From the NCBI RefSeq assembly GCF_988242995.1, contig NZ_OZ547043.1: DNA of 64,000 nucleotides, one strand, 5' to 3'. Below the pieces are notes generated by a model, which saw only the letters and a list, made by a program, of their open reading frames with translations, was not told where the DNA came from and searched no databases. This document shows, piece after piece, positions 2,325 to 62,054 of this stretch. Both the position numbers and the translations under genes were made by a program. Position 1 is the stretch's first letter, and the number at the start of each line of letters is the position of its first letter.

Positions 2325-2326
2325 TC

Positions 2327-2770: not shown

Positions 2771-2775
2771 GACGA

Positions 2776-3915
2776 TTACCAGTTATGAATGTCGCTGGCT
2801 GTATCCGTCATGTAACGGACACCGCTAATAGTTGGCAGCAACTGATTGATCAGACGGTTCCAGCGGGAAACCGGGGCGGTGGTGACATACACCACGTCAT
2901 AAGGTTGCAGGCGGAATTCTGTCGCCATCACCAGCGACGTGGCATCGGACATATCCAGCTGGTAGATATTGGCAATCTTGCCGTTACGCCCGCCCTCGCC
3001 TTTCAGCGGACGAATGACAAAGATGCCGCTGGCGTTGGAGGTGGTCATGTCGATGCCTTCAGCATTGCCCAGGGCTTCGGTCAGGGTCATGCCGCTAAAG
3101 TCCATTTTCAGGGTGCTCTGTTTCTTCACTTCACCCATCACAAATACTTTCAGATCATCATTACGTGGCACGTAGAGAATATCGCCGGGGTAAAGCAGGC
3201 GATTCTGGTTGAGGTCGCCGTTTTGCATCAGCGCCTGCAAAGAAATGCGTTCTTCACGACCATTGTGTGTTAACACCACGTTGCGCCAGTCAGCGGTGTC
3301 GGTCAGGCCACCTGCGGCGTTGATGGCGTCGAGAATAGTCAGTGGCACGTTGGTGATCGCCTGTTGACCGGATTTATTCACCTGACCGGAGATATAGGCC
3401 TTTTGTGAGCGGAAGGCGGCGATATTAACGTCCACCTGCGGGTCAGCGATGTACGTCGCTAAGCGCCCGGTAATATCACTGCGGATTTCAGCGAGCGTTT
3501 TCCCGACTACGTGAACCTTGCCGATATACGGGTAGAACATAGTGCCGTCAGGCTGTACCCAGTTGCCGGTGTCGCTGGAGCTGCGGTACTGACCAGCTGG
3601 CGTGGTGAGTTCCGGGTGATCCCAGACGGTGACATTAAGAACGTCGCCCGGCCCGACGCGATACTGGTAATTCGCGATCTCACTTTCCAGCGTCATATTG
3701 GGGCGCGCTACATTCGGGCGTGGGCGTAATTGGTCAATCAGGCGCGGGGTCAACGGATAAACATTCACCATTTTGTCGAGATCGAAATCAGCGTCCTGCT
3801 GTTTGATGACGTCTTTGCCCATCGTCGACATATTGCTGCCCGGAAGTACTGTGCAACCGCTTATCAAGGTTACTGACACCAATAATGGCATCAATTTCAT
3901 TTTGGATTTCATCAT
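2776..3915 (-). CDS. wza: Outer-membrane polysaccharide export lipoprotein Wza
   Basis: 379-aa ORF; signal peptide with lipobox (LISGC); conserved wza-wzb-wzc order. Confidence 0.9.
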
Positions 3916-8077: not shown

Positions 8078-8098
8078 GGTATCCTCAATGGGCCTGAA

Positions 8099-8680
8099 TT
8101 AGTCTTTATCGATTCGGCTGGCTACCGCGCCCTGCTGGTTGCGATATTTCGCATCTTCACGGCGGTTGTAAGGTCGCGCCGCCGGGCCGGAAAGCGGCTC
8201 AAAGCTCAGCGCACCAATTAACATGCCCGGACGCAGCGCCAGCGGCAGCTTACCGGAGTTGTAGAACTCCAGCACAATACAGCCAGACCAGCCCGGATCG
8301 ATACGGTGCGCGGTGACGTGCACCATCAGCCCCAGACGCGCCAGTGAGGAACGACCGTCCAGCCATCCCACCAGATCGGCTGGCAGCGTCACCGACTCCA
8401 GCGTCACCGCCAGCGCCAGCTCTCCTGGGTGAAGATAAAACGCCTCGCTTTCATCGAGTACGATCTCATCGCTCATCACGCGGTCAAGCGCGGCGCTCAC
8501 TTCATCTTTGGGACCGCTCAGATCGATAAACGCTGCCGTGTGACCACGGAAGGTACGAAATTTATTGCCCAGGCGCACATCCACCGTCGCGCCATTAATA
8601 CGCTCCACTGGCGGACGTGGGTTGATCGACAAACGGCCTTCATCAAGCCAGGCTTCAATATCTCGGTCACACAGACGCAT
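8099..8680 (-). CDS. dcd: dCTP deaminase
   Basis: 193-aa ORF beginning [17 protein letters not shown]; conserved neighbour of udk. Confidence 0.9.
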
Positions 8681-8771
8681 GGCATTTTCTCCTTTCGTGC
8701 ATCACTCCCTTAACGCCAATTACGTCAAGGGCATACCAGGTTATCACTGAACGGTACACAATTTATCAAGC

Positions 8772-9413
8772 TTATTCAAAGAACTGACTTATTTTCGCTT
8801 TCAATATATCGATGGCGATGCGGTTTTTCCCGCCGCGCGGCACGATAATGTCCGCATATTGTTTAGAAGGCTCAATGAATTGCAGGAACATCGGGCGCAC
8901 GGTTTTTTGATATTGCGCCATCACTGAATCCATTGAACGCCCACGCTCGTTAACGTCACGCTTGATGCGGCGCATCAGGCAGATATCCAGCGGGGTATCA
9001 ACGAAAATGGAGAAGTTAAGTTCGTCACGCAAACGCGCATCTGTCAGCAACAAAATGCCTTCGAGAATGATGACCTTCTTCGGCTCAACCGTCACCGTTT
9101 CTTTCATTCGCGTATGTTCAACATAGCTGTAAACCGGCAGGTCAATTGCCGAGCCGCGTTTCAACGCTTGTAAATGCTCAAGCAACAGGCTGTGATCCAT
9201 CGCGCTGGGATGGTCGTAGTTGGTCTTAACGCGTTCTTCCATCGACAGATGGCTTTGATCTTTGTAATAGCAGTCTTCGGGAATTACGCCGATGTGTTCA
9301 TCACCGACTTGCTCACGTAATTCACGATAAAGGGTACTGGCAATAAGACTCTTGCCGGAAGCCGATGCGCCAGCGATACCGATAATGACGCACTGATGAG
9401 ACTGATCAGTCAT
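8772..9413 (-). CDS. udk: Uridine/cytidine kinase
   Basis: ORF track 8772..9476; start trimmed to ATG 9413 ([23 protein letters not shown]-loop), giving 213 aa. Confidence 0.9.
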
Positions 9414-9730
9414 ATATTTAGCGACCTGATTAACCTGGATGTTAGGAAGGGGGCGACGAAGCGCCAAACGCGGCAATTATAGGGATTTCATCCGCCTGAT
9501 ACCAGTCGAATAGCGTTGCCGCGCGCTCAGAGTTAATTGTTGACGAAGAATTCCCGGTGGCAAATTACGTTGATCAGTTTTATACAAGGTAAAAATTGTT
9601 ATACGCAGTTGCGCAAATTATCCGCCTTTACGTCACTTTATGAGCAATTCGCATATAAAATGTAAAACTTTTGTACTAGCATAAACACAGAAACGAATAC
9701 TGGCGACCTGGTCTTGCGGATAAAGCGGTA

Positions 9731-12700
9731 ATGAGCAAACAATCACAGCATGTATTAATTGCCCTGCCCCACCCGCTGCTTCACCTGGTCAGTTTAGGTT
9801 TAGTCTCGTTTATCTTTACCCTTTTCTCGCTTGAGCTTTCGCAGTTTGGCACCCAACTCGCCCCACTGTGGTTCCCGACGTCCATCATGATGGTGGCGTT
9901 TTATCGCCATGCCGGGCGCATGTGGCCGGGGATTGCGCTGAGCTGCTCGCTGGGAAATATCGCCGCATCCATCCTGCTTTTTTCCACCAGCTCGCTGAAC
10001 ATGACCTGGACGACCATCAATATTGTTGAAGCCGTGGTCGGGGCAGTGCTACTACGTAAATTGCTGCCGTGGTATAACCCATTGCAAAATCTGGCTGACT
10101 GGCTGCGTCTGGCACTCGGCAGCGCCATTGTTCCACCTCTGTTGGGGGGTGTTCTGGTTATCCTGCTGACGCCCGGAGACGATCCTCTCAGGGCATTTTT
10201 GATATGGGTACTGTCAGAATCCATCGGCGCACTGGCACTGGTGCCGCTGGGATTGTTATTTAAACCACACTATCTGCTGCGCCATCGCAACCCACGGTTG
10301 CTTTTTGAGTCGCTGCTCACGTTAGCCATCACACTGACGTTAAGCTGGCTTTCGATGCTGTATCTGCCGTGGCCTTTTACTTTCATTATTGTGCTGTTGA
10401 TGTGGAGCGCCGTGCGCCTGCCACGAATGGAAGCCTTTTTGATCTTCCTTACCACGGTGATGATGGTGTCACTGATGATGGCCGCTGATCCCTCCCTGCT
10501 TGCTACGCCGCGTACATACCTGATGAGCCATATGCCGTGGCTACCGTTTTTGCTGATCCTGCTGCCCGCCAACATCATGACCATGGTGATGTATGCCTTT
10601 CGTGCGGAACGCAAACACATTTCCGAAAGCGAAACCCGTTTTCGTAATGCCATGGAATATTCCGCCATCGGCATGGCATTAGTGGGCACCGAGGGACAAT
10701 GGCTGCAATCCAACAAAGCGCTCTGCCAGTTTCTCGGTTACAGTCAGGAAGAACTGCGCGGACTCACCTTTCAGCAACTGACCTGGCCGGAGGATCTCAA
10801 TAAAGATCTGCAACAGGTTGAAAAGCTGATCAGCGGTGAAATAAACACCTATTCAATGGAAAAACGCTACTACAACCGCAATGGCGATGTTGTCTGGGCG
10901 TTGCTTGCCGTCTCACTGGTGCGCCACACGGATGGCACGCCGCTCTATTTTATCGCTCAGATTGAAGACATTAACGAGCTAAAACGCACCGAACAGGTGA
11001 ACCAGCAACTGATGGAGCGCATCACGCTGGCTAACGAAGCGGGCGGGATTGGCATCTGGGAGTGGGAGCTAAAGCCGAATATTTTTAGCTGGGATAAGCG
11101 GATGTTCGAGCTGTATGAAATTCCTCCGCATATCAAACCGAACTGGCAGGTGTGGTACGAGTGCGTGCTGCCGGAAGATCGCCAGCATGCCGAAAAAGTG
11201 ATTCGTGATTCGTTGCAATCACGCTCGCCCTTTAAGCTGGAATTTCGCATTGCCGTGAAAGATGGCATCCGCCATATCCGCGCCCTCGCCAACCGGGTAC
11301 TGAATAAAGAAGGCGAAGTCGAACGTCTGCTCGGCATTAATATGGATATGACCGAGGTTAAACAGCTTAACGAGGCATTGTTTCAGGAAAAAGAGCGCCT
11401 GCACATTACGCTGGATTCCATCGGCGAAGCCGTGGTTTGTATTGATATGGCAATGAAAATTACCTTTATGAATCCGGTGGCGGAGAAGATGAGCGGCTGG
11501 ACGCAGGAAGAAGCGTTAGGTGTTCCACTCCTGACGGTGTTGCATATTACTTTTGGCGACAACGGACCATTAATGGAGAACATTTACAGTGCCGACACCT
11601 CACGTTCCGCGATTGAACAAGATGTGGTGTTGCACTGCCGAAGCGGCGGCAGCTACGACGTGCATTACAGTATTACGCCGTTAAGTACTCTGGACGGCAG
11701 CAATATTGGTTCGGTTCTGGTGATTCAGGACGTCACCGAATCGCGCAAAATGCTGCGCCAGCTGAGCTACAGCGCCTCCCATGATGCACTGACGCATCTC
11801 GCCAATCGCGCCAGTTTTGAGAAGCAACTGCGTATCCTGCTGCAAACGGTAAATAGTACGCACCAGCGACATGCCCTGGTGTTTATCGATCTTGATCGCT
11901 TTAAAGCGGTGAATGACAGCGCCGGGCACGCCGCTGGCGACGCTTTACTGCGCGAACTGGCGTCATTGATGCTGAGTATGCTGCGCTCCAGCGACGTGCT
12001 GGCGCGACTCGGTGGCGATGAATTTGGTCTGCTGCTGCCAGATTGTAATGTCGAAAGTGCGCGTTTTATCGCTACACGCATTATCAGCGCCGTGAATGAC
12101 TATCACTTTATCTGGGAAGGACGTGTACATCGGGTAGGTGCCAGTGCCGGGATTACCTTGATTGATGACAACAATCATCAGGCGGCTGAAGTGATGTCGC
12201 AGGCTGATATCGCCTGTTATGCCTCCAAAAATGGTGGCCGGGGCCGGGTGACGATTTACGAACCGCAGCAAGCTGCCGCACATAGCGAACGGGCGGCGAT
12301 GTCGCTTGATGAACAGTGGCGGATGATTAAAGAGAATCAGTTGATGATGATCGCCCACGGTGTCGCTTCGCCGCGGATCCCGCAAGCGCGTAATTTGTGG
12401 CTGATTTCACTTAAGCTCTGGAGTTGCGAAGGCGAGATTATTGATGAACAAACATTTCGTCGTAGCTTCAGCGATCCGGCACTTAGCCATGCTCTTGACC
12501 GACGGGTATTCCACGATTTTTTCCAGCAGGCCGCCAAAGCGGTTGCCAGTAAAGGTATAAGCATCGCCCTCCCGCTTTCCGTTGCCGGTTTGAGTAGCGC
12601 CACGCTGGTGAATGAACTAATTGAGCAGCTGGAAAATAGCCCTCTACCACCACGGTTATTACATCTGATTATTCCGGCAGACGCGATTTTAGATCACGCA

Positions 12701-38699: not shown

Positions 38700-39890
38700 T
38701 TAATTGCTGTTAACCGAGGTGACCAGATTTGCCAGGTATTTATCGGTAATACGCTGGCGCAGGGTCAGGTTTTCAAGAGGAGGCACCGGTGTATAGTCGT
38801 AGTCGATATACAGTTTTCCGGCCTTGAGGGTTTCCGCATCGTTGGATTCTTCGCTGAACCAGCAGGTCGCATCCACGATATAGCCGTTTGTTTTCAGCTC
38901 ACGGAATTTGGCATTGATGCCGTCAACGATGTCGCGAATCAGCGTTGCGGTGATGGGCTTGTCCACCGCCCACATGTGCGCCTCAGCCATCGTGTCGGCC
39001 ATCACCTGCGCGGTGCGGGTGTAGTTTTCAAAGAGGAACAGCGGGTCATCAGAGCAGGTACGGTTACCCCAGAATCGGAAACCGTCGCGGCGAATCAGCG
39101 TAGTGACGCCTGACTCGTTAAGCAGGTCAGCATCGGTGCCGGACTCCTGCAAATCCCAGAATACAGATGCGCTGATGCCGGTAACACCGTTTACCCCGAC
39201 GTTGGACAGCGTTTTATGCCAGCCCTGCTCCTGGTCGATTTTAGCGCGCAGACCCAGCGCACGGGCGGTGGCATACGCGGTGGCGGTGGTACTGGTGACC
39301 GTATCCCATGCGAGGAAATCCGGCCAGATGACCATCAGCTCACGCTGGCTGAAATTCTGGCGGTAGGCTTTCACCTCGGAAATGGTCTTACAGCCCCATG
39401 CGCTGATATATCCGAAAGCGCGCAGCTTCTGACAGACGGATGCCAGTGCAACAGCCACCTCTTTGGTATCCAGTCCCGGCACGCCGAGAATACGCGGTTT
39501 AACACCGGTTACCGACTCCGCCGCCAGCAGGGCTTTCAGTCCGGTGTACTGACCGTTTTCGTCGGTGGTGCCGATGATATTGGAAACGGTCTGCGCAAGT
39601 TTCGTTTCCTCGTCATCACCGGTGCCGTCTTCCACGCGCACGACAACGGTGACCGGTTTTGACTGGTCAGCGATGGCCTGCAACGATGCCGCCAGCGTGC
39701 CTTTTTTACCGGCCTTTGCAATTGCGCTCTGCACATTGGTAATCAGCACCGGTTTATTGAGGGGGAAGGTTTCCGCATCCGCATCGCTGGCCGTGCAGAC
39801 CATGCCGACAATGGCAGTGGATACGGTGGAAATGACGCGGGTGCCGTCGTTAATCTCCAGCACCTGCACGCCGTGATGATAGTCACTCAT
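38700..39890 (-). CDS. FI: Contractile tail sheath protein gpFI
   Basis: 396-aa ORF beginning MSDYHHGVQVLEINDGTRVISTVSTAIVG. Confidence 0.9.
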   Translation of the reverse strand: MSDYHHGVQVLEINDGTRVISTVSTAIVGMVCTASDADAETFPLNKPVLITNVQSAIAKAGKKGTLAASLQAIADQSKPVTVVVRVEDGTGDDEETKLAQTVSNIIGTTDENGQYTGLKALLAAESVTGVKPRILGVPGLDTKEVAVALASVCQKLRAFGYISAWGCKTISEVKAYRQNFSQRELMVIWPDFLAWDTVTSTTATAYATARALGLRAKIDQEQGWHKTLSNVGVNGVTGISASVFWDLQESGTDADLLNESGVTTLIRRDGFRFWGNRTCSDDPLFLFENYTRTAQVMADTMAEAHMWAVDKPITATLIRDIVDGINAKFRELKTNGYIVDATCWFSEESNDAETLKAGKLYIDYDYTPVPPLENLTLRQRITDKYLANLVTSVNSN

Positions 39891-40257
39891 CCGTTTAACT
39901 CCGTGGTTAATGGGTGCAACTATTTTCTGTTGTGCAGAGCATGAGACGCTATTTGCCCTGGATGGTCAGTGGATGAAACAACAGATACAGAAAAGGCGGG
40001 CAATTCGCCCGCATTTCCTAATTTGTACTAACCCAGCTTCCAACTGACAATTTACGTAGCCAAAAAGCTATCAAGTCTGGCAGACTGATTTGTACGAGGT
40101 GTGGATAACCATAATTATGTGCATGCTAACATCACGGTGCATGAGTCAATCGGGTCTATGCCAAAGAATTACGCCTTGATTGACCATAGATTGCTTGCCC
40201 TTGAATTTGACCATTCCAATAAAATGAATTATGATAATCGTCAAATGGAGGTGCACA

Positions 40258-40902
40258 ATGATCAAACACACCGCAGCAGAAAGGGAAACCAACACTTCAG
40301 CTAAGCTGAATGAATACCAGTTGAACCTTCTGAAAAGAATTAACAACCTCGCTATTTCCCTGATGCCTGAATTTGAAGACAAAAACCAGGCAATTAATGC
40401 TATCACGCTGGATGATAGTTCACTGATGCAATTGCTCTACACCGTTCAACTCGAACAGAAGACTCGTGTCAATGACTACGAACTACGTAAAGTGCGCCGT
40501 CGTCGCGAAAATCTGGAACGATTTTATCGTGGGCTTCAGGAGTTAGGCGGTACGCTAAAGGTAAATGACGTGGTCGATATTCTTGGAATCACCCGCCAGG
40601 CGATCAACATTCGCGTTAAGAAGAACAAGCTTTTAGCATTCAAGCAGAACGGTGATTTTATTTTCCCGAAATTTCAGTTCACAGATAACGGGCTGATTCC
40701 CGGCTTTGAAGACGTAATGGCGGCATTTGACGAGAATACCCATCCAATGCTGAGGTTGGGTGTGCTGAAATCACCAATAGAGGTTAATAGCGAAGGCCTG
40801 AAAAAGACGCCGATTCAAATCATGCAGGACGGCGCTAAAAATAGTGAACTTAGTCTGGCTATCCGTGCCGCTAAACAGTTCGGAAATCATGTATCCAGTT
40901 AA
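40258..40902 (+). CDS. Hotspot cargo: HTH protein with C-terminal MbcA/ParS (DUF2384)-like toxin-binding region; putative antitoxin or regulator
   Basis: ORF track 40231..40902; ATG 40258 has a GGAGG RBS, giving 214 aa. Central HTH-like segment (VVDILGITRQAINIRVKKN); C-terminal SPIEVNSEGLKKTPIQIMQDG...LSLAIRAAKQFG resembles the MbcA/ParS toxin-binding domain as recalled; not in the P2 core. Confidence 0.45.
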   Translation: MIKHTAAERETNTSAKLNEYQLNLLKRINNLAISLMPEFEDKNQAINAITLDDSSLMQLLYTVQLEQKTRVNDYELRKVRRRRENLERFYRGLQELGGTLKVNDVVDILGITRQAINIRVKKNKLLAFKQNGDFIFPKFQFTDNGLIPGFEDVMAAFDENTHPMLRLGVLKSPIEVNSEGLKKTPIQIMQDGAKNSELSLAIRAAKQFGNHVSS

Positions 40903-40908
40903 TTGTTT

Positions 40909-40940
40909 TAAAAAGAGGGGCTAGCCAGCCCCTCTTTGGT
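40909..40940. terminator. Bidirectional intrinsic terminator between the convergent cargo genes
   Basis: Hairpin AGAGGGGCT-AGCC-AGCCCCTCT flanked by T-rich runs on both strands, lying in the 38-bp gap between the two stop codons. Confidence 0.6.
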
Positions 40941-41651
40941 TTACATTGGTTCTGGCGTAATTTCGAATCCAAGCAGTTCTTCGAACATCTCTTCACCTGA
41001 CATCGTTCCTTTGTGCCACCCTTTAGGGAAGATACCTTCGTCATTTTCGATGTAACTGGCATAAGGCACCATCCCCTGAGGGGTATCGGTAAAGGCTGGT
41101 GTACTATCCGGTCGTTCCCAAAAGGCATAACAGCGTTTATAGCGTTTATGCCTTGAGGTATAGGCTATCCCGTCATAGTCACGCCCGAAATGTGTATAAA
41201 GATGTTCCATTAGCCATTGAGTAAAAGTGTAATCCTCGTTCTCTAAGCTATCCAAAGGAATATGTAACAACTCACAGAGCGCTACAACATCGATCACTTT
41301 CACTGGCCTCATGACATCCACAGAGCACATATAGTGTTGTGAAAGTACCGATTCAGGATAAGAAATCGTCCCTTCGAGATGGAGCAAACGCCCATAAGCT
41401 TCTGCCGCCGCCGTTAACGCAGAGTCAGAGGCATACCATACCGCCACACATCCCCCTGGGGGGTTGTATCGCCCACATTCATTTTCCTCAATTGGCGCTC
41501 TGAAGTTGATTGCGCTTTCATACAACGCCCTTTGATGACGCTTCAAAAGACCAGAGCCTGGTTGAATGTCAATCGCCGGAATACGTCCAGATTTATTTTT
41601 TGCAGCAATTCCTTGTGCAACAATATTTTTTTCAAATGTCCATTTGGTCAT
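40941..41651 (-). CDS. Hotspot cargo: RES-domain protein (putative NAD+-consuming toxin)
   Basis: ORF track 40941..41699; ATG 41651 has an AAGGAG RBS, giving 236 aa. N-terminal CGRYNPPGGCVAVWYASDSALTAAAE matches the RES signature GGRWNPP...Y.A.S...A..E (Arg, Glu); later DGIAYTSRH supplies the conserved Ser. Confidence 0.55.
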   Translation of the reverse strand: MTKWTFEKNIVAQGIAAKNKSGRIPAIDIQPGSGLLKRHQRALYESAINFRAPIEENECGRYNPPGGCVAVWYASDSALTAAAEAYGRLLHLEGTISYPESVLSQHYMCSVDVMRPVKVIDVVALCELLHIPLDSLENEDYTFTQWLMEHLYTHFGRDYDGIAYTSRHKRYKRCYAFWERPDSTPAFTDTPQGMVPYASYIENDEGIFPKGWHKGTMSGEEMFEELLGFEITPEPM

Positions 41652-42066
41652 TTTTACTACTCCTTCTATAAACAGATTAAGCCATAGGCTCCTCTCCATA
41701 TTGATTGAAAATAATCCCTACCGTGCTTGCCCGGCAGGGGGTATGAGAACATGTGTATCTCAATCTCGATTATACCAAGCAAATTTTCTATTTTTCGGAA
41801 ATTTAGAGAGTTTTTTTAATGCTTCGCATGCCTTCTCGATGTATTGATGGGGCTGAAAAGAAGAAATAACGCAGGAAGTTTTACGGAAAGGAGAACTATA
41901 AAGATTTTTTTCAAGTGAATTAGAAATAAGAACTTCGCAGGATACTGCATTTTTAGTGAAGATGGGTTGAGTTTCTCAGCAAGAGTCCCGCGAGAGCCGT
42001 ATTGACAGCATGCATGACTCGGAGATTATTCCCCATGCAGGATGGTACACCAATGCAAGAGTTGGT

Positions 42067-42255
42067 TTACGCAAATGATTGGATGATCGCGATTACCGAC
42101 CGTACATTGCGCAAATAACGTTCTGCGTCGATGCTATTAAGATGCCCCGACCACACCGTACGACGGACGCCGTAGTGATCCGAGCTTAAGAATAGATAAT
42201 CTTTTCTCTCCGGATTCACCGTTCGCAGTGCGTTTTCCATAGCTGTCGCAAGCAC
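42067..42255 (-). CDS. Small hypothetical ORF in the Z/fun-equivalent region
   Basis: 62-aa ORF (MLATAMENALRTVNPERKDYLFLSSDHYGVRR...) without a recognisable RBS; may be a gene remnant. Confidence 0.2.
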   Translation of the reverse strand: MLATAMENALRTVNPERKDYLFLSSDHYGVRRTVWSGHLNSIDAERYLRNVRSVIAIIQSFA

Positions 42256-42345
42256 AATACTTCCGCTACAGGCACAGAGCGGACTGTCAGATTAGGTTTT
42301 ACTCTGTGCCATAGATGAGTAATCTCACACCAGATCTAATACGAT

Positions 42346-42924
42346 TTATTGTGGCATTTCAGGCCATTCTATATCCGGAGCATCTTCCGGCTGAACGCGA
42401 TTCAGTAGCACACGGTATTTTTTCCAGTGTGTCAGGCTTAACTTTTCTTCCTCGGTAGCCATATCTAAATCGACAGCATCCTGCAGCGTGGCAATAATTT
42501 CACCTGCATATGCAATCAGCTCTTTCTTCTGAGAGTCAGCCGCTCTGACAAGCGCATCACGCTCTGCATTCTCATCATTCACCCACGCATTTCCGTTCCA
42601 TTTCTGATAATCCCCATCCGGGGAAATGGCTGTCACGTCTGGAGGTAATGCGCCAAGTTCAGAAATATAAATGGCTGCTCCCGTTTTCGTTTCGTAGACA
42701 GTCTTTCCGCGATGATCTTCCATCAACTCCCATTTTATTTCATCTGCATTGAAAACGGCTGCATAACCAGCCGGTATATCAGGCGGCGCAATATCTGTAC
42801 TGTTTGCAGGCAGACCTGTATACGGTGGAATATACGCGTCACTTTCCCCAATAAATTCATTGGTTCCATCAAGTAAATTAAATACGCGGATAGTTTGTGC
42901 TTCTGCACTCATTCTGAAAGCCAT
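42346..42924 (-). CDS. G: Tail fiber assembly chaperone (gpG/Tfa-like)
   Basis: 192-aa ORF immediately downstream of and overlapping the tail fiber gene stop; conserved position. Confidence 0.7.
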
Positions 42925-45542
42925 TATGCAAGCCTCACAATATAGTTAAATGCGATGTTTTTTACGGTATTTTCTGTATTACCTGTAGCATTAACGGTAA
43001 TAGAGTGCCCGTGTGAGCCAATAGCAACCGTGTGTGAATGTGCACCAATACCAACAGTATGGTTATGTGCTCCAATGTCGACTGTATGTGCATGATTGCC
43101 TGATGAACTTGTAGTCGTAGCACCTTTATCACTTCGCGGAACACCATAATCTGCACCGCCTGATTGCACGCTCACAGCAAAACCGACGGTATGTGTATGA
43201 TTGCCAGAAGTATTGGTTGATTTTGTGCCGTGGTTAAACGTACTGACTGTTTTTGTCCCGTAATCAAATGAACTGGTTGTTTTCGTTCCCAAATCCGTAT
43301 TTGACGCACTGGCGCTGTGAGTATGCGATTTAATCCCGTCCTGTTCCTGTGACAATACGGCACGCCCACTGGCAGGTTTGCCCTTGATTGTCCAGCCGCG
43401 CATATCAGGAATAACACCTGAAGGATAGGCAACAGCCAGTTTCGGATATGCAGCCTTATCAAACGTCTGCCCCTGCATAATTGCATAGCCCGCAGGTGGT
43501 GTATCTGATGGCCACGGCAACGGAACACCTGGCGGAAACGCTTCAATATCTTTCGTCCCGTCAAACGTTACGCCATTAATCGCCCTTGCCGTTTTCAGCT
43601 TTGTAGCTGTAGCCGCATTGCCGGACAGTTCGCCTGAAAGACCGGCGCTGAAGGTTTGTTTCGCCGCCCATGTCTGAGCTTCGTCGATAATTGGCACACG
43701 TCTTGTCGTGATCGTGCGGCTTCCCGGATTTCCTGAAATACGCACCATAAAAAAGCGGTAGTTCGCTTTACTTACAGTGCTGCGCCATACATGCATTGAG
43801 CGCCCAGTACCGGAATCATCACTCGGACCAACTGCGATGTTTATCAGGTTGCCATCAATGACGCCCCAGTCCATACCGTCGGGAATATTGGTCATGTTAT
43901 CAAGCCGAACGGTTATCAGACTGCCCGGCACAAAGTCGTGGGTCTGCCAGTCCAGGCTGGTGAGTTTTGCCACTGCACCGCCGATACCCAGATTCAGGGG
44001 AAGTGAATACGAGGTGTAGACTTCCCGCCATTCGCTCCACGAGCTGCCGGTATAGACGCGCTCAAACGTGCGACCTTTAAGGGTTGCACCTGTTCCGGCA
44101 GTTGTATAACGCTGCCATACGTTAACACCATCAAAGCGCCTCAACACTTCCAGAATACCGAGGACTGTCACGCCGTTTCCGTCCAGTATTGGACCGTTGG
44201 TCGCTTTACCTGTAACGCTGTAAATACCTGGTGAAGTCACATCATTCAAATCCCCGTCGTAATAACGACTCTCTGACTGATGACCGACTCTTAACCACGG
44301 TTCCCACTGCGGATTTGATGCATCCCAGCTTGCCGCAAGGCAGCGGACATACATATTTCCACGGCGAGTGGTATAACGTTGCGTTCTTCCATAATTCCCG
44401 CCTTCGAGGATCTCAAGCGTCCCCTGAGCAAAGCCGCCTTCCTCTGGATAATTGCGTTCATATGAAGCTATAGCCGAGCTACTGTTACGCCATAAACCAA
44501 GATGTTCGGCGGCTCCAAGCGTATTCAGGTCTATAGTCGTACTCAAAGGGCGGGTAGCTGATTGAGTGTGACGCCATACGCCCCATGGACCATCAGTACC
44601 ATTCCACTGATTGGCGAGTTTACGCATGTATACATTGCCGTCTCTCGTGATAAAGCGTTGCGTGCCTGCAAAATTGCCGGCAGCAAAAACCTCAAGCACA
44701 CCGACAGCATTATCTTCCGGGAAATTTTTCTCCAGTGTTGCGTTAGTTGAGGTAGCTTTAGACCAGATCCCCAGATAAGCCTTAACGGGACCAAATGTAT
44801 TCAGATCAGCATCAACCGGCATTTCGCCGTTGTTTTTCATAAACGTCAGGCTGGTAACGCCAACATTGTCCAGAAAAGCGTCCTTATCTGGAATATCGCC
44901 ACCGTTCTGGTCTTTCTGCAGACGTTTCTCAGCATTGTCATAGGCTGCTTTTACTGCCTTTGGCGTTGCCGCCAGCTTTTCACTGGTGCTGTTTGTTGCA
45001 CTGCTTAACTGAGTAAAACCTTTTTCTGTCAGCGTGGCGTCAGGATGGCGGCGGGACTGCTCATGCTCTGCGATTTTGTCATCGACGTAATCCTGCGTCG
45101 CCATCACCGTGCTGGCATCAATACTCAGCTCAACGGACGCCACGTTGCTGAGAATAATAACCATGCGGCAGGTCTGCGCACGTCCGGAGCCTTCAGCCAG
45201 TTCTGGCTTATAGCTTTCTGCCATGTTGGATACCGCAATCAGTGTTCCGGCATCGTCATACAGACCAAGCTCACGCATCCAGAAGCCGCCCACTTCGGGC
45301 GGTACAACCAGTTCAGCCACGATATAGTTTTTATTCTTGTTATCCACGCTGACTTTATTCAGAGCGTGACGCCAGACCTCATGCACCAGTTTCGTCTGAC
45401 CGGCATCCGGCACCGGCAATTTGCCATTACCGTCACCCACGGCCATTGCAGACAGGTTTACTTTTTTCCCGCCGGGGACAGTGGCGGCTGCCAGCTTTGC
45501 GGCTCCGGCAGTAGTGATAACGGTTTTAAATTTCGTGCTCAT
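42924..45542 (-). CDS. H: Tail fiber protein gpH, mosaic, with His-box-rich C-terminal receptor-binding region
   Basis: 872-aa ORF; P2 H-like N-terminus ([40 protein letters not shown]...); C-terminal repeated GNHxHTV/GxHxH motifs. Confidence 0.85.
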
Positions 45543-54408: not shown

Positions 54409-56181
54409 ATGACCATCACCACAGACACCACTCTTTTACACGACCCGCGTCGTCAGGCGGCGCTGCTGTACTGGCAGGGGTTTTCCGTGCCGCAGATTGC
54501 CGCCATGTTGCAGATGAAACGCCCGACGGTGCAGAGCTGGAAACAGCGCGACGGCTGGGACAGCGTTGCCCCCATCAGCCGTGTCGAAATGAGTCTGGAA
54601 GCGCGGCTGACCCAGCTCATCATCAAACCGCAGAAAACCGGCGGTGACTTCAAGGAAATTGACCTGCTCGGACGCCAGATTGAACGACTGGCACGGGTCA
54701 ACCGTTACAGTCAGACCGGCAACGAGGCAGACCTTAATCCGAACGTCGCTAACCGCAACAAAGGCGGGCGTCGCAAACCGAAAAAGAATTTTTTCAGTGA
54801 CGAGGCCATCGAAAAGCTGGACCAGATTTTCTTTGAGCAGTCTTTCGAATATCAGTTGCACTGGTATCGCGCCGGGCTTGAGCACCGCATCCGCGATATC
54901 CTGAAATCCCGCCAGATTGGCGCGACGTTTTATTTTTCCCGCGAGGCGCTGCTGCGCGCCCTGAAAACCGGTCATAACCAGATTTTTCTGTCGGCCAGTA
55001 AAACGCAGGCGTATGTGTTCCGCGAATACATCATCGCCTTTGCCCGGCTGGTTGACGTTGACCTGACCGGTGACCCGATTGTCCTGGGCAATAACGGCGC
55101 AAAACTGATTTTTCTCGGCACCAACTCCAACACCGCGCAGAGCCATAACGGCGACCTGTACGTCGACGAGATTTTCTGGATCCCGAATTTTCAGGTACTG
55201 CGTAAGGTGGCATCAGGTATGGCCTCACAGAGTCACCTGCGTTCGACCTATTTCTCCACCCCGTCCACGCTGGCGCACGACGCCTACCCGTTCTGGTCGG
55301 GTGAACTGTTTAACCGGGGACGCGCCAGCGCCGCCGAACGCGTGGAAATCGACGTCAGTCATAACGCCCTTGCCGGTGGACTTCTCTGTGCGGACGGCCA
55401 GTGGCGGCAGATTGTCACCATTGAGGACGCCCTGAAAGGCGGCTGCACGCTGTTCGACATTGAGCAGCTTAAACGCGAAAACAGCGCCGACGATTTTAAA
55501 AACCTGTTCATGTGTGAATTTGTTGACGACAAGGCGTCGGTGTTCCCGTTCGAGGAGCTGCAACGCTGCATGGTCGACACGCTGGAAGAATGGGAAGACT
55601 ATGCGCCGTTTGCCGCGAATCCGTTCGGCTCCCGCCCGGTATGGATTGGTTACGACCCGTCACACCGTGGCGACAGCGCCGGATGCGTGGTACTGGCACC
55701 GCCGGTGGTGGCCGGTGGCAAATTCAGAATACTTGAGCGTCACCAGTGGAAAGGCATGGACTTTGCCACTCAGGCTGAATCCATCCGCAAACTCACCGAA
55801 AAATACAACGTCGAATACATCGGTATTGATGCCACCGGCCTCGGTGTCGGCGTGTTCCAGCTCGTGCGCTCGTTCTATCCCGCCGCGCGCGACATCCGCT
55901 ACACGCCGGAAATGAAAACCGCAATGGTGCTCAAGGCAAAAGACGTTATCCGCCGTGGCTGTCTGGAATATGACGTCAGCGCCACCGACATCACCAGCTC
56001 GTTTATGGCTATCCGCAAGACCATGACCAGCAGCGGGCGCAGCGCCACCTATGAGGCCAGCCGCAGCGAGGAAGCCAGCCACGCCGACCTCGCCTGGGCG
56101 ACCATGCACGCCCTGTTAAATGAGCCACTCACCGCCGGTATCAGCACCCCGCTGACATCCACCATTCTGGAGTTTTACTGA
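54409..56181 (+). CDS. P: Terminase large (ATPase) subunit gpP
   Basis: ORF track 54379..56181; start at ATG 54409 with GAGGT RBS (MTITTDTTLLHDPRRQAALLYWQG...), giving 590 aa. Confidence 0.9.
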   Translation: MTITTDTTLLHDPRRQAALLYWQGFSVPQIAAMLQMKRPTVQSWKQRDGWDSVAPISRVEMSLEARLTQLIIKPQKTGGDFKEIDLLGRQIERLARVNRYSQTGNEADLNPNVANRNKGGRRKPKKNFFSDEAIEKLDQIFFEQSFEYQLHWYRAGLEHRIRDILKSRQIGATFYFSREALLRALKTGHNQIFLSASKTQAYVFREYIIAFARLVDVDLTGDPIVLGNNGAKLIFLGTNSNTAQSHNGDLYVDEIFWIPNFQVLRKVASGMASQSHLRSTYFSTPSTLAHDAYPFWSGELFNRGRASAAERVEIDVSHNALAGGLLCADGQWRQIVTIEDALKGGCTLFDIEQLKRENSADDFKNLFMCEFVDDKASVFPFEELQRCMVDTLEEWEDYAPFAANPFGSRPVWIGYDPSHRGDSAGCVVLAPPVVAGGKFRILERHQWKGMDFATQAESIRKLTEKYNVEYIGIDATGLGVGVFQLVRSFYPAARDIRYTPEMKTAMVLKAKDVIRRGCLEYDVSATDITSSFMAIRKTMTSSGRSATYEASRSEEASHADLAWATMHALLNEPLTAGISTPLTSTILEFY

Positions 56182-57215
56182 TGAGCAAGAAAAAAGGGAA
56201 AACACCGCAACCTGCGGCAAAAAAAATGACCGCCAGCGCCCCGAAAATGGAGGCATTCACCTTTGGTGAGCCGGTGCCGGTACTCGACCGCCGTGACATT
56301 CTGGATTACGTCGAGTGCATCAGTAACGGCAGATGGTATGAGCCACCGGTCAGCTTTACCGGTCTGGCAAAAAGTCTGCGTGCTGCCGTGCATCACAGCT
56401 CACCGATTTACGTTAAACGCAATATTCTGGCCTCGACATTTATCCCGCATCCGTGGCTTTCGCAACAGGATTTCAGCCGCTTTGTGCTGGATTTTCTGGT
56501 GTTCGGTAATGCGTTTCTGGAAAAGCGTTACAGCACCACCGGTAAGGTCATCAGACTGGAAACCTCACCGGCCAAATATACCCGTCGTGGCGTGGAGGAG
56601 GATGTTTACTGGTGGGTGCCGTCCTTCAACGAGCCGACAGCCTTCGCGCCCGGCTCCGTGTTTCACCTGCTGGAGCCTGATATTAATCAGGAGCTGTACG
56701 GCCTGCCGGAATATCTCAGCGCCCTTAACTCTGCCTGGCTGAATGAGTCGGCCACGCTGTTCCGCCGCAAGTATTACGAAAACGGCGCACATGCCGGATA
56801 CATCATGTACGTCACCGATGCCGTGCAGGACCGCAACGATATCGAAATGCTTCGCGAAAACATGGTTAAGTCGAAAGGCCGCAATAACTTTAAAAATCTG
56901 TTTCTCTATGCCCCACAGGGGAAAGCCGACGGCATTAAAATTATCCCGCTCAGTGAAGTGGCAACGAAGGACGATTTTTTTAATATCAAAAAAGCCAGTG
57001 CCGCAGACCTGCTGGACGCGCACCGCATCCCCTTTCAGTTGATGGGGGGCAAGCCGGAGAACGTCGGGTCGCTGGGTGATATTGAGAAAGTGGCAAAGGT
57101 CTTTGTCCGCAATGAGCTTATCCCGTTACAGGACAGGATCCGAGAGATAAACGGCTGGCTCGGTCAGGAGGTCATCCGCTTTAAAAACTACTCACTGGAC
57201 ACTGACAACGACTGA
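56181..57215 (+). CDS. Q: Portal protein gpQ
   Basis: 344-aa ORF overlapping the P stop. Confidence 0.9.
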   Translation: MSKKKGKTPQPAAKKMTASAPKMEAFTFGEPVPVLDRRDILDYVECISNGRWYEPPVSFTGLAKSLRAAVHHSSPIYVKRNILASTFIPHPWLSQQDFSRFVLDFLVFGNAFLEKRYSTTGKVIRLETSPAKYTRRGVEEDVYWWVPSFNEPTAFAPGSVFHLLEPDINQELYGLPEYLSALNSAWLNESATLFRRKYYENGAHAGYIMYVTDAVQDRNDIEMLRENMVKSKGRNNFKNLFLYAPQGKADGIKIIPLSEVATKDDFFNIKKASAADLLDAHRIPFQLMGGKPENVGSLGDIEKVAKVFVRNELIPLQDRIREINGWLGQEVIRFKNYSLDTDND

Positions 57216-57384
57216 ACATCGCCGCCTGCGGGCGGCTTTTTTACATCCCGTCATCACGCCCTCACACGCTCACCACCGCACAAAACACCCCTTAGACACA
57301 CCAACGCCCCGACGCACAATCTAAACGCCATCACGACGCGCTCAGACGCTGAAAAAATAAAATCAGCACCACCGCCAGCGCGCA

Positions 57385-57403
57385 GTGCTTTCCCCGCCTC
57401 GCC
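57385..57403. other. P2 cos cohesive-end sequence (19 nt)
   Basis: GTGCTTTCCCCGCCTCGCC is the reverse complement of the P2 cohesive end GGCGAGGCGGGGAAAGCAC as recalled; located just past Q. Confidence 0.75.
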
Positions 57404-57554
57404 CGCCCGCTTCATGGGTCGGTTTGAATGCAGTTGAATTACAACTACCAAACCAAGCAATCCCTACTATTACGCAGAAAATGCATACTGAAATACCTCG
57501 TGCAAATTGATGCAGCTAAGTATGCATAGGTTTTATGCCTCAACGTATACGTTA

Positions 57555-59387
57555 TCAAACAGAGCCCTGTTCAAAAACAGTATCAAAATATGGTAGGAGA
57601 GGATAAGCACACAGAAAGAAAATCAGGATGCATGCATATGTCGTTGTTTCATCGTAACAAGCATTAGTATATAAATTACCATGTGCTAATTTATGTCTTA
57701 AGGTTGCCCCACTCTTTCTGTTAAAAAGAACATCGATAGTCAAAACAAGATTTTTAGAAAAGATACTTTCCAAATCATCTCTGCATTTATCTAGAAGCTG
57801 AGAAATACTTGTTGACTCCTCTAATCCCTTATCCAAATATCTAGTAGCATCCTTTCCACTAAGCTCATAATAATAACGAACCATACCTTCCATTTGTGGT
57901 ATTAAAAGATAAGCTGCACTGATGTAATCTCCCTGCCATAATTTGTAAAAGCCCAAATTAAAAATCTCCCTAAACTCCGGCTTGACAATTGGACTAGTTG
58001 TAACCAATTTAACGAATGTTGACAACGTCAAGCCATGTTCTTGAGAAAGTACATAGCGAGCAGGTTCAAAGACACCGTTTACAAAAATCTTATGAGTAAT
58101 CTCGAAATTTCTTAGATATTGATCAATAACAACATCATCACTCATATCTTTTTTATTATCCAACGGCGGGATTGTATATATCTTACGCCCACTCTCATCA
58201 TTAATTTCTGTTCCAACAAAACTAGAGAATAAACTTTTTTCTGATAATCTTAAAACTTGTTCCCTCATGCTTTCAATATTTTCAATCGGTGTTTCACTCA
58301 TTAAAACTTTGAATATATCGGGCAAAGAACGCCCCGTCAGTTTTTTTTCACTTTCAGCAACCAAGTCACTAATATCAATAGAATGGCTTAAAGTGACATA
58401 TTCACTCCTTACTTCTTCTCTCAAATTAGCAAGTTGTTCCTTTAAATCTTCTATCTGTTGGCTATCACCACCGTACTGTCTTAATTCAGAGATAGCTGTT
58501 CTTAACCAAGAGATCTTACCCATATTATCAGGTCGTTCTGTTGCAACTTTAATAGTAATATTTGCAGATGCCAGTTTACATCTCTTGGCACGTTCATACT
58601 CACCATTTTTTTCATAAATAACTGCACTTGTCATATAAAGTGATTTTACAGCATCATAATATTTTTTATCTTTATGCTGCTCAGCCATCTTCTCAGCATT
58701 TTCCGCATACTGCAGATTATACCCATCAAAATCACGCACCATAAACCAAGTCAAATTATTGAAACCTTCAAAGATTAATCTTTCATTTTGAATACTATAA
58801 AGAGAATGAATGGCATTTTTAATCGCCATGTTTCCTTCTGATTTTCTAGGGTAGACCATTTTATTAATGTGCAAAGCCCTAGCAATATAATCACGAGCAA
58901 AAATAAAGCAATTTAAATCACTTTCATCCATGCTTTCGTTTTTTATTATTAGCTTTTCAATTGCTATATTTAGCATTTCAGCATAGGAATCAATTGCTTT
59001 AATTGCCACGTCTTTATTTTTCCGATTATTACACCAAACAACATCATATATTCTTGATAACAAAAATGGATTGGTTATTTTTTGAGAAACATATAAAAGA
59101 CAGTCATTCACCTGCTCATCAAAATCTTCAGGCAATATTGATCTTTTATTACCCCAAATCATTTGGGGTTCAAATGCTGGAGTGTTGTTAACAACTTGCA
59201 AATTGAAACTATATAGCATACCAAAAAGAGATGCTAATTTTTTCTCTTTGGGGTTTTCTGATGACTCAGCAATCCCATCCAGATATTTTTTTATTTTATG
59301 TGCATGAAATGTAACTGGTATATACATAAAAACACTATAATCTAGTGTTTCAAGCTCTTCCCTTGTAAGAACAAAGATATCATTCAT
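57555..59387 (-). CDS. Hotspot cargo: large AT-rich protein of unknown family with C-terminal HEPN-like Rx4H motif; candidate anti-phage effector
   Basis: ORF track 57555..59492; likely start ATG 59387 with AAGGTGA RBS (MNDIFVLTREELETLDY...), giving 610 aa. Occupies the position of P2 tin/old; codon usage visibly AT-rich; no Walker A, TOPRIM or RT motif seen; LRHKLAHG near the C-terminus. Confidence 0.6.
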   Translation of the reverse strand: MNDIFVLTREELETLDYSVFMYIPVTFHAHKIKKYLDGIAESSENPKEKKLASLFGMLYSFNLQVVNNTPAFEPQMIWGNKRSILPEDFDEQVNDCLLYVSQKITNPFLLSRIYDVVWCNNRKNKDVAIKAIDSYAEMLNIAIEKLIIKNESMDESDLNCFIFARDYIARALHINKMVYPRKSEGNMAIKNAIHSLYSIQNERLIFEGFNNLTWFMVRDFDGYNLQYAENAEKMAEQHKDKKYYDAVKSLYMTSAVIYEKNGEYERAKRCKLASANITIKVATERPDNMGKISWLRTAISELRQYGGDSQQIEDLKEQLANLREEVRSEYVTLSHSIDISDLVAESEKKLTGRSLPDIFKVLMSETPIENIESMREQVLRLSEKSLFSSFVGTEINDESGRKIYTIPPLDNKKDMSDDVVIDQYLRNFEITHKIFVNGVFEPARYVLSQEHGLTLSTFVKLVTTSPIVKPEFREIFNLGFYKLWQGDYISAAYLLIPQMEGMVRYYYELSGKDATRYLDKGLEESTSISQLLDKCRDDLESIFSKNLVLTIDVLFNRKSGATLRHKLAHGNLYTNACYDETTTYACILIFFLCAYPLLPYFDTVFEQGSV

Positions 59388-59506
59388 CGTTTTCACCTTT
59401 TTCAGTATAAATTTGCACGCATTATTATTAGCAACATAATCATCAATAGTTAACACATGCAGATAGACAGCAATTTTACTATTATGCAACAAATTAAATC
59501 AGATGT

Positions 59507-61789
59507 TTATTGCTCTGAATAACAATAAAACCAACTCCACTCATCAGCGACCGGATACGTAAATTTTTTCCCGTTGTAATTTACGGTCGCTCCACGCGCC
59601 AGCGCCTCCATCTCCCATCGCTGCGGCCTGATACCGTTCTGAGCAAGGTCAACGCGGATACGGGTAATTTGCATTCGTTCCGACCGGGTCAGTCTGGCCG
59701 ATGGCGCTATTTCATGCGGTTTTAGCGGGCTTCCGTTTCTTTGCTGACGATTTAGCGTTCTCAGCCCGTGTTTTAATGCGCCCCTGAGCGCCTTCACGAC
59801 CTCCGGGTCATTCCATTCGATAACACCGTCATTAACCAGATTAAGCACTGCTGCGGCGTGCTCAGAAGGTGTGGGAGCCGGTAACGAAGTATCACCACCA
59901 GTGAGCTTTCCACAGTTATTGACAGGACTCCGAGGCGCGGCGATGCCGCTTTTTAAAGTCAAAGGCTCAACGACCGGAACTTTCGGCACAATGCGCCAGT
60001 CCGTCGTTCTGGTGATATGAATATGACGCGCGCCGAGATGCGGCGCGTAAATGCCGACCACTCTCTCAACTTCTTCCTCGTACTCGTTAACGTCATCCGA
60101 CGGGCTACGGGCAACCCTGACAGTCTGACAATCGCGCGGGACATTTGCCCCACCCTGCGCGCTGATATACAACGCAAAATCACCACTGTCTGCGGCGGCG
60201 CGTGCAGCCTCGACGCGTTCGTCAAACTCATCAGCAATGCTGACGCCGCGAGGCAATTTGCGTAGTTCACGGTAAGCCCCCATTGTCGGCAGGCCAACCG
60301 TTTTAAATTGCGGGATGCGCCACGTTGACGCCCATGCGGTAACAGCCGCGGCAGTGTCATTCAGCGGTCTGCCGGTATCATTATCGAGCTGACCATCCAG
60401 TGCATATCCGTCGATATTTTTTGAGATGTATTTCGCGATATACCCCGCAGCACCGCCCCGGTTAAGGTGTTTCGCCTGAAAACGGTTTCGCGCGGCTCCT
60501 CTTTCGTCGCCATCCTCTTTGAGCGCGTAGCGACGCATGATTTCAATAATCTGGTTACGCTGGCGTGGATTACAAAAAAGCATCATATGCCAGTGCGGCG
60601 TTCCGTCGTGGTGTGGCTCGACGACTCGCAAACCGTAGACCTGTAAATCATTATCCTTGAATGCCGTGCGCATCAGGCTCCAGATACGGCAGAGATAACG
60701 CTGCGCATCCTTTGGATTAAATGCCTCATCGTTCCAGCCGTGATTAAGCTGGACGGTTTTACTTTCGCCTTTTCCGACCTGACGTGTCGGGTGATACTTT
60801 GACGGCGCGGTCAGCGTGATAAACATCCCCACATCACCCTCTGCGGCGGCGTAACGCTCAATACCGGCAATGGTGTTCATCAGCTCCATCCGGCGAATTT
60901 CAGGATTAGAAATACTGCCCATCACCTTACTGATAAGGTCGATGCGCTCGCCGGTTTCCCTGTTTTCAAGGTCACACGATTTAAGAAATTCCAGATTTGC
61001 CTGGCGGCGTGCACGTACATCACGAATGGCATGTTTACTGGCATAAGGAGAACGGTCTTTATTCACCTCCCCGACAGCAATCAGTAACGCCTCATGCCAG
61101 CGCATACGCTGGCCTTTAAGCTGATGAGTCCACCACTCATCGTTAAACAGACGGGCAATGGCAGAATATGCCTGCCTCGTGGTCATCTGTCCTTTACGGT
61201 ATTTTTTCCAGTAGAGAGGGGAAATATTGAAAGCACGTGCAGCGCCAGCAACATGACCATAGAGGTGAGCCTGCGCCTCATCCGTAAACAGCGATTCTTT
61301 CTCGCCATGCGCATCCACCCAGGCATCGCAGAGTTCCTCATACATCATGAAAAGCTGCGATGAGATACGGGCAGCAAATTTTTTCAGCTCCTTGTCATTC
61401 ATTCCCGGCAGGCGCGCATACTGGTCGCGCTCTGCCAGAAACAGCAACGACGCATCGGTGTTCATTTCATGGCGCTGATTCACACGATCAATGCGCGGCC
61501 ATAAACGACGCTGAAAAGTGGATGTGAGGAAATAAAACCCGTGCACTGGGCTTTTATTGCGCCTGATGTAGTCATAGCGTGAAGTAAACAGCGAGCGCAA
61601 AAAGTAAGGCAGGCGGTTAATCGTGGATAAAACACCTTGCACCTGACGCATCTCATCACGTGTAAGAGGTCTTTCGCGCCCGACAGCCTCGCGTGGCGCG
61701 TTCCATGCATAAGCACCGGTAAACATCTTACCGGTGCCTGCGGCAAATGCTGACGGAGGGACAAAACGCCCGGAGGCTTTAACGGCCAT
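59507..61789 (-). CDS. A: Replication initiation protein gpA (rolling-circle nickase)
   Basis: ORF track 59507..61831; probable start at 61789 (MAVKASGRFVPPSAFAAGTGKMF...), giving about 760 aa. Confidence 0.85.
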   Translation of the reverse strand: MAVKASGRFVPPSAFAAGTGKMFTGAYAWNAPREAVGRERPLTRDEMRQVQGVLSTINRLPYFLRSLFTSRYDYIRRNKSPVHGFYFLTSTFQRRLWPRIDRVNQRHEMNTDASLLFLAERDQYARLPGMNDKELKKFAARISSQLFMMYEELCDAWVDAHGEKESLFTDEAQAHLYGHVAGAARAFNISPLYWKKYRKGQMTTRQAYSAIARLFNDEWWTHQLKGQRMRWHEALLIAVGEVNKDRSPYASKHAIRDVRARRQANLEFLKSCDLENRETGERIDLISKVMGSISNPEIRRMELMNTIAGIERYAAAEGDVGMFITLTAPSKYHPTRQVGKGESKTVQLNHGWNDEAFNPKDAQRYLCRIWSLMRTAFKDNDLQVYGLRVVEPHHDGTPHWHMMLFCNPRQRNQIIEIMRRYALKEDGDERGAARNRFQAKHLNRGGAAGYIAKYISKNIDGYALDGQLDNDTGRPLNDTAAAVTAWASTWRIPQFKTVGLPTMGAYRELRKLPRGVSIADEFDERVEAARAAADSGDFALYISAQGGANVPRDCQTVRVARSPSDDVNEYEEEVERVVGIYAPHLGARHIHITRTTDWRIVPKVPVVEPLTLKSGIAAPRSPVNNCGKLTGGDTSLPAPTPSEHAAAVLNLVNDGVIEWNDPEVVKALRGALKHGLRTLNRQQRNGSPLKPHEIAPSARLTRSERMQITRIRVDLAQNGIRPQRWEMEALARGATVNYNGKKFTYPVADEWSWFYCYSEQ

Positions 61790-62054
61790 ATGAGCCAAAA
61801 GCCTCTGAGCAACGCTTGCTGAGTTGCTCAACCTGCGCGTTTAAATCAGCAAAAGACTTTGCGCTTCCGGTCAGAATATCGTGATGCATCAGGCCGGAAA
61901 CGAGCTGGCTTAATTTCGGGTAATAACCAACCACCGCCAGCCATTCCTGACCGGCGTTTTTACCGCTTTCCGCTCTCTTTTTCTCGTGGAGAATAAACTG
62001 AAAGCTGTCACTGGTAACGACATAACGTTCGCCAATTTCGATACGAATACTCAT
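61779..62054 (-). CDS. P2 orf83-like hypothetical protein
   Basis: 91-aa ORF in the conserved early-operon position. Confidence 0.6.
   Translation of the reverse strand: MSIRIEIGERYVVTSDSFQFILHEKKRAESGKNAGQEWLAVVGYYPKLSQLVSGLMHHDILTGSAKSFADLNAQVEQLSKRCSEAFGSYGR

Follow-up and report, generated by a model that had tools for sequence, protein, structure and literature searches.

The 64,000-nucleotide (nt) window analyzed here (NCBI RefSeq assembly GCF_988242995.1, contig NZ_OZ547043.1) carries a P2-like prophage. The gene under study encodes a 610-amino-acid (aa) protein. It was acquired horizontally and by itself makes up an accessory ('moron') cassette in the prophage's A-cos-Q hotspot, where it replaces the old and tin genes of P2. 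The locus is defined by the following features.

57555..59387, minus strand: cargo coding sequence (CDS), 610 aa plus stop, containing DUF7380, a TPR-like repeat and DUF4209/HEPN, with a match to PDC-S39
57447..59529, no strand assigned: variable AT-rich cargo module of ~2.1 kb, delimited by megablast breakpoints and the guanine-plus-cytosine (GC) profile; it takes in the last ~8 codons of gene A
57385..57403, no strand assigned: P2-type cos site of 19 nt, an exact match to the reverse complement of GGCGAGGCGGGGAAAGCAC, marking one side of the hotspot
56181..57215, plus strand: gene Q, portal, the hotspot boundary on the cos side; annotated in homologous records
59507..61831, minus strand: gene A, replication endonuclease, the other hotspot boundary; annotated in homologous records
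59388..59506, minus strand: upstream intergenic region with AAGGTG and two sigma-70-like consensus matches, the presumed native promoter

A single-gene cargo module between cos and gene A

The cargo gene is the sole open reading frame (ORF) of the AT-rich module that separates the P2 cos site from gene A. Genes A and Q are annotated as such in a 99.4%-identical Peduovirus record and in a RefSeq E. coli chromosome. The sequence GGCGAGGCGGGGAAAGCAC is what we take to be the P2 cohesive-end (cos) sequence, and the same 19 nt adjoin the homologous gene in 11 related loci. Megablast searches with both junctions (queries 57000-57700 and 59250-59950; 75-78 records) show that homology to P2-like phages stops at ~57446 (query position 447) and restarts at ~59530 (query position 281).

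Base composition changes over the same interval, with a GC content of 0.30-0.35 across ~57500-59500 and 0.52-0.58 on either side. The cargo CDS itself has a GC content of 0.332 and a third-codon-position GC content (GC3) of 0.255, compared with GC3 values of 0.54, 0.65 and 0.72 for genes A, Q and P. A sequence-only reading of this DNA had described a single AT-rich ORF of ~610 aa in the cos-A interval of P2 and had taken it for recently acquired old/tin hotspot cargo. Both descriptions stand, given the composition, the position between cos and A, and a module that is swapped among P2-like phages. The comparison of the cos-to-A interval across P2-like prophages that the same reading proposed reveals a variable module, with homologues in the same slot of 19 related loci.

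The flanks of the cargo ORF (108 nt and 119 nt) leave no room for a partner gene, and antisense ORFs within the CDS are judged to be mechanical. An Rfam scan of the module returns one match far below threshold (E 0.32), with no sign of an RNA antitoxin. Imperfect inverted repeats of 15-20 nt, 80-87% complementary, lie on either side of the ORF (57479-57511 and 59400-59426). These are probably chance occurrences in AT-rich DNA and could alternatively be remnants of cassette boundaries.

The mechanical ORF list gives 57555..59492 on the minus strand, within which an in-frame ATG at 59387 yields the 610-aa protein. This ATG is preceded, 6-7 nt upstream, by an AAGGTG Shine-Dalgarno sequence and is the start common to all homologues and to the clone of Rousset et al. 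described below. N-terminally longer versions also exist, with 632 and 643 aa in public records and 645 aa when translation begins at the TTG of the mechanical list. The agreement of the Shine-Dalgarno sequence, the homologue alignment and RefSeq supports the 610-aa ATG start. Clone pFR103 carries the homologous upstream DNA, designated its 'native promoter'.

The exact protein is present in NCBI as a 'DUF7380 domain-containing protein', and its 90% cluster has 810 members from E. coli and Salmonella. The gene is under purifying selection: the ORF is intact in close alleles, with a ratio of nonsynonymous to synonymous substitution rates (dN/dS) of ~0.16-0.22 from small counts.

Family membership

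The sequence-only reading left the protein in an unknown family, a description that no longer holds. Two hidden Markov models (HMMs) of the PADLOC family PDC-S39 match it at E 2.4e-84 (profile positions 44-583 of 595) and E 1.6e-83 (27-599 of 615), and the PHROGs family phrog_5183 is matched end to end. Pfam DUF7380 (PF24098) covers aa 4-184 at E 5.7e-38. Pfam DUF4209 (PF13910) matches the query alone weakly, at E 0.0034 over aa 524-590 (model 23-87 of 89).

Conservation was assessed in 113 diverse relatives sharing ~20-25% identity with the query. DUF7380 is found in all 113. When these relatives are scanned singly, DUF4209 is detected in 67 of the 113 at E<=1e-3 and in 105 at E<=0.1; the strongest of these matches reaches E 5e-14. 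Membership in DUF4209 is settled at the family level because so many relatives match at the stricter threshold. Close copies are likewise labelled DUF4209 in GenBank and UniProt.

A profile search of 1.84 billion representative proteins recovers 3358 clusters at 50% identity with E<=1e-3 and 615 with E<=1e-30. Members are mostly 600-640 aa long and matched end to end. By these counts and lengths the family is large, and its architecture is fixed.

An NCBIfam scan of the 610-aa protein gave no match, and sequence searches of the PDB with the single protein, a full-length profile and a C-terminal profile gave no meaningful one and no family member with a solved structure. In AFDB50, the best 50 matches are all uncharacterized bacterial DUF7380/DUF4209 proteins, with no ERMARD or other eukaryotic protein among them. 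Pfam, NCBIfam and PADLOC show no match to ATPase, TOPRIM, reverse transcriptase (RT), SIR2 or TIR families. An identity as Old, Tin or a retron RT was rejected on the same three databases, which gave no ABC-ATPase plus TOPRIM, Tin homologue or RT match; the earlier exclusion of Old, Tin, a retron and an ATPase-nuclease was therefore sound.

Anantharaman et al. 2013 (PMC3710099) placed DUF4209, also known as the C6orf70 family, among the HEPN families that are catalytically competent, and described its Rx4-6H motif as conserved. Its members are fused to TPR repeats, occur in bacterial operons related to restriction-modification (R-M), and have been traced to the last eukaryotic common ancestor (PMC3710099).

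Domain architecture and the HEPN active site

AlphaFold2 models of the protein are confident, with predicted local distance difference test (pLDDT) values of 94.8 (full-length, 113-sequence alignment; predicted template modeling score, pTM, 0.86) and 94.0. The former shows alpha/beta structure at the N-terminus, then an extended series of helical hairpins, and finally a helical C-terminal domain into which a small beta-hairpin is inserted. The corresponding features, all on the minus strand, are as follows.

58836..59378, minus strand: DUF7380 domain, aa 4-184, alpha/beta with a beta-hairpin pair; Pfam PF24098
58113..58829, minus strand: central all-helical repeat, aa ~187-425, with TPR / alpha-SNAP / Rap-like hairpins
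57558..58025, minus strand: C-terminal HEPN domain, aa ~455-610; the Pfam DUF4209 match spans aa 524-590
57876..57890, minus strand: E500-G-M-V-R504, the Ex3[KR] of HEPN helix 2; translation verified
57681..57698, minus strand: R564-H-K-L-A-H569, the HEPN Rx4H motif; translation verified

The DUF7380 domain has near-invariant residues R82, D88, R112, D115, W118, Y135 and R170 among the 113 relatives. The central segment, which had been described as coiled-coil-like, is modeled instead as TPR/alpha-SNAP-like helical hairpin repeats, and a structure search with it retrieves TPR, SNAP and Rap proteins. It is presumed to be a scaffold for binding ligands or proteins. Together, DUF7380 and the TPR-like repeat occupy the upstream two-thirds of the protein and look like a recognition or regulation module.

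The C-terminal domain has the defining HEPN fold, an up-down four-helix bundle of ~100-120 aa in which inserts are allowed. Searched in isolation, it retrieves almost only HEPN structures and aligns over 100-127 residues to soluble HEPN proteins. Hallmarks of HEPN families are an Rx4-6H motif, a polar N, D or H after the arginine, and an upstream Ex3[KR] in helix 2 (PMC3710099). The sequence-only reading had pointed to RHKLAH as a possible Rx4H in a C-terminal helical region, and this proved correct: R564 and H569 are present in 113/113 relatives and lie on a short helix (563-568) ahead of the last long helix. The residue following R564 is H in 87 relatives, N in 24 and D in 1. Both residues of the upstream motif lie on helix 498-509, with E500 in 113/113 and R504 in 112/113 relatives. 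E500, R564 and H569 are the only invariant columns of the entire protein. Conservation in the protein is strongest at these predicted catalytic residues, so they are likely to be used. Four independent tests support the assignment of the C-terminal domain as a HEPN domain with an intact predicted active site.

Distribution and genomic context

DNA of this gene is found in 54 of 5426 complete E. coli genomes, and its location is chromosomal every time. The gpA-gpQ slot holds a homologue in 15/15 IMG/VR loci and in four others (L001, L002, L003 and L008), 19 loci in total. Occupancy of this slot extends from homologues at 99% identity through 66% and 54% to 26-37%, even where gpA is only ~36% identical. 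The slot is thus shared across diverged P2-like lineages, and the family has therefore been repeatedly captured, or retained, there. Elsewhere, one homologue, carried by a mobile element, is flanked by Mrr-type and DpnII-like nucleases, and several distant homologues are solitary among ordinary or metabolic genes.

Individual loci show further variation. In L002, a 37%-identical homologue (8326-10431) adjoins PARIS (AAA_15/AAA_21 + DUF4435); next to it are also an Ogr/Delta gene, a remnant of gpA and, by tblastn, a fragment of gpQ. The arrangement resembles a P2-like element that has decayed while retaining a defense islet of two systems. The L008 prophage (NZ_CP042903.1, E. coli CFSAN061761) is 99.8% identical to the window prophage apart from a 333-aa hypothetical gene between Q and cos (2234-3235) that the window lacks, pointing to another insertion site, on the side of cos that faces Q.

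A naturally disrupted allele is present in L016 (IMGVR_UViG_2563366973_000012). Here, an IS21-family element encoding an IstA-like protein of 513 aa and an IstB-like protein of 249 aa (6755-9571) is inserted at codon ~585 and replaces the last HEPN helix. A further DUF7380/DUF4209 lineage, 33% identical, occupies the same hotspot in a P2-like phage of ECOR46 (AM157366.1, Enterobacteria phage P2-EC46, a 2192-bp record). It may correspond to the second 'DUF4209' entry (rank 55, 76 occurrences) of Table S5B of Rousset et al.

Proposed mechanism and alternative explanations

The reading we favor, by a modest degree, is that of a self-inhibited, sensor-gated HEPN RNase used for phage defense; its RNase activity, dimerization, sensing and defense phenotype are what we infer from the domains and the locus. 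The 610-aa protein would be cytoplasmic, made in the lysogen from its own promoter and held inactive. Infection would be detected by its N-terminal and repeat regions, the cue being a phage protein or a change that infection induces. Sensing would let the composite HEPN site form, probably by dimerization. By analogy with characterized HEPN enzymes (PMC3710099), the active site would then cleave mRNA, tRNA or rRNA in a metal-independent manner, leaving 2',3'-cyclic phosphate ends. The infected cell would be arrested, and the lysogen population would be protected.

The resting protein is evidently not lethal, because a near-identical gene could be cloned and assayed under its native promoter, which fits a self-inhibited effector. 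The genomic context argues for defense, through the old/tin slot, recurrent occupation of hotspots, PARIS and Mrr/DpnII-like neighbors, and PDC embedding.

The alternative that survives best retains the HEPN RNase and assigns it a non-defense role. Such a role could be lysogenic conversion, prophage maintenance through addiction or competition, or a housekeeping-type function in stress-linked RNA turnover or quality control, the last argued by analogy with the predicted role of eukaryotic C6orf70/ERMARD. It would account for the absence of the near-identical clone from the systems validated on eight phages and for the solitary distant homologues among metabolic genes. Length conservation in a large family traced to the last eukaryotic common ancestor (PMC3710099) is also in keeping with it. 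According to Rousset et al. 2022 (PMC9122126), non-defense cargo, partitioning systems for example, fills about a quarter of P2 hotspots, and toxins occur in some. We nevertheless consider a non-defense role unlikely. The old/tin slot is reused across diverged P2-like lineages, homologues neighbor PARIS and restriction nucleases, and the family was found through guilt-by-embedding in BREX, DISARM and restriction-modification (RM) systems. Moreover, its patchy occurrence in E. coli (54/5426 genomes) and foreign composition are typical of defense cargo over housekeeping genes.

A membrane location is a second alternative, raised by the following segment.

57573..57647, minus strand: hydrophobic helix aa 580-604, TTTYACILIFFLCAYPLLPYF, which follows the Rx4H motif at the expected place of HEPN helix 4

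If this segment were a transmembrane (TM) helix, as predictors of the Phobius type and the C6orf70 literature suggest, the protein would be a membrane-anchored effector or an RNase tethered to the inner membrane. Its hydrophobicity is considerable, with a 19-residue Kyte-Doolittle maximum of 1.78 at aa 587-605, and this system is marked '1 TM' in Table S5B of Rousset et al. 2022 (PMC9122126). A single TM region has also been described in C6orf70 (Anantharaman et al. 2013, PMC3710099). However, the segment directly follows Rx4H, where helix 4 belongs, and is modeled at pLDDT 96-98 inside a compact domain (pTM 0.90) that aligns with soluble HEPN proteins over 100-127 residues. It also has conserved aromatic and proline positions (Y584, P596 and, in the family consensus, W587) that are typical of core helices, and the protein has no signal peptide and no other hydrophobic segment. 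A membrane anchor therefore appears improbable. The hydrophobicity of helix 580-604 most likely explains the '1 TM' comment, and the TM call may be a prediction artefact for the DUF7380-DUF4209 family.

It is highly improbable that the HEPN-like domain is non-catalytic and serves as a binding or scaffold module, as in nucleotidyltransferase HEPNs or MtlR, with the protein acting as an adaptor or regulator. HEPN families of that type have lost the Rx4-6H motif (PMC3710099), while R, H and the upstream E are the sole invariant residues over 113 relatives here, which points to a site maintained by selection.

Membership in AbiD/AbiF (Abi_2), ApeA (HEPN_Apea) or DUF4145, which the sequence-only reading had suggested, has a negligible chance of being correct: the resemblance is the general one of a single-gene HEPN protein in a defense locus, no Pfam match appears at E<=10 and no Abi or ApeA match in PADLOC at E<=1, and DUF7380 + DUF4209 / PDC-S39 fits the protein end to end.

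A second low-GC interval in the window

A second interval of lower GC content (0.39-0.47, compared with 0.55-0.60 nearby) spans 39,900-42,340, between a tail-sheath-like ORF (38700..39890, minus strand) and tail-fiber genes (42346..45542, minus strand). This is presumably the Z/fun slot of P2. It contains ORFs at 40231..40902 (plus strand, 223 aa) and 40941..41699 (minus strand, 252 aa). Neither has an NCBIfam or PADLOC match, and the former shows only a weak excisionase-like PHROG match.

Significance

This analysis adds nothing new on what is present at the locus, and its value lies in how clearly the case is defined. The family comprises more than 3000 clusters at 50% identity, has invariant HEPN catalytic residues, recurs in defense hotspots and has a reported eukaryotic branch. 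Discovery of the trigger would add a sensor module, DUF7380 plus the TPR-like repeat, to those of HEPN effectors, and might inform the biology of a human disease-associated gene, ERMARD.

A broader and tentative proposal, possible in our view though short of an even chance, is that the PDC-S39 family is a genuine anti-phage, sensor-gated HEPN RNase whose narrow trigger was missed by the eight-phage panel, and that it is a prokaryotic immune relative of ERMARD/C6orf70. If so, the 'transmembrane helix' of the family would be a buried fourth HEPN helix, which would change how the human protein is read.

Comparison with known systems

The gene is already known: it is listed in a published catalogue, bears the label of a putative HEPN, and went through one phage screen without validation, so the novelty implied by the sequence-only reading falls away. 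Rousset et al. 2022 (PMC9122126) analyzed 18,150 E. coli P2 hotspot loci, with the hotspot adjoining cos between gpA and gpQ. Rank 13 of their Table S5B is a single-protein system, 'DUF4209', with 193 occurrences, whose sequence is 98.5% identical to the window protein over the 399 residues given in the supplement. The plasmid pFR103 in their Table S2B, 'Putative HEPN', derives from E. coli S88, whose P2-hotspot gene was cloned along with its native upstream DNA. The pFR103 protein is 98.7% identical over the 399 residues given, the window protein differing by Y22H, E44G, A71S, E284D and S364R. System #13 and pFR103 thus share the gene, the upstream region and the gpA-cos/gpQ slot with the window. 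Validated systems are in Table S2A, while Table S2B holds 'additional tested systems' from an eight-coliphage assay; three of eight additional P2-hotspot systems were active, pFR103 not among them, and no clone-specific result is given (PMC9122126). For system #13, that study reports no phenotype and no structure or motif analysis.

P2 old and tin occupy the same slot as the window gene and share its presumed role in prophage exclusion. They have no homology to the window protein, which gives no ATPase, TOPRIM or Tin-like match.

PDC-S39 resembles the window gene in its single-gene organization and in the near-full-length HMM match. The PDC models of Payne et al. (2024 preprint, 10.1101/2024.01.29.577857) cover 145 untested candidates that lay within BREX, DISARM or type I RM loci. 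PDC-S39 was defined from genes embedded in such loci, whereas the window gene is prophage cargo. Members have been reported in P. aeruginosa PAO1 and an E. coli O157:H7 strain; the strings 'PDC-S39' and 'DUF4209' are absent from the supplements of the PDC paper.

The HEPN family of C6orf70/ERMARD shares with the window protein the Rx4H and Ex3R motifs, a TPR-like fusion, links to bacterial R-M systems, and a hydrophobic helix predicted to be TM. The eukaryotic proteins differ in their proposed function, which is RNA degradation associated with the endoplasmic reticulum and not defense.

In the literature, no characterization of the DUF7380/PF24098/phrog_5183 family was found. The DefensePredictor preprint validated four HEPN-containing E. 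coli systems, which may or may not include this family. At the sequence level, the window protein is not a member of RnlA/LsoA, PrrC/RloC, Csm6/Csx1, the C-terminal HEPN of AbiA, HEC-08 or DS-11. Unlike those HEPN defense RNases, it has no CARF, ATPase, CBS or Zn-finger domain and no antitoxin partner, and its candidate sensors are instead the DUF7380 domain and the TPR-like repeat.

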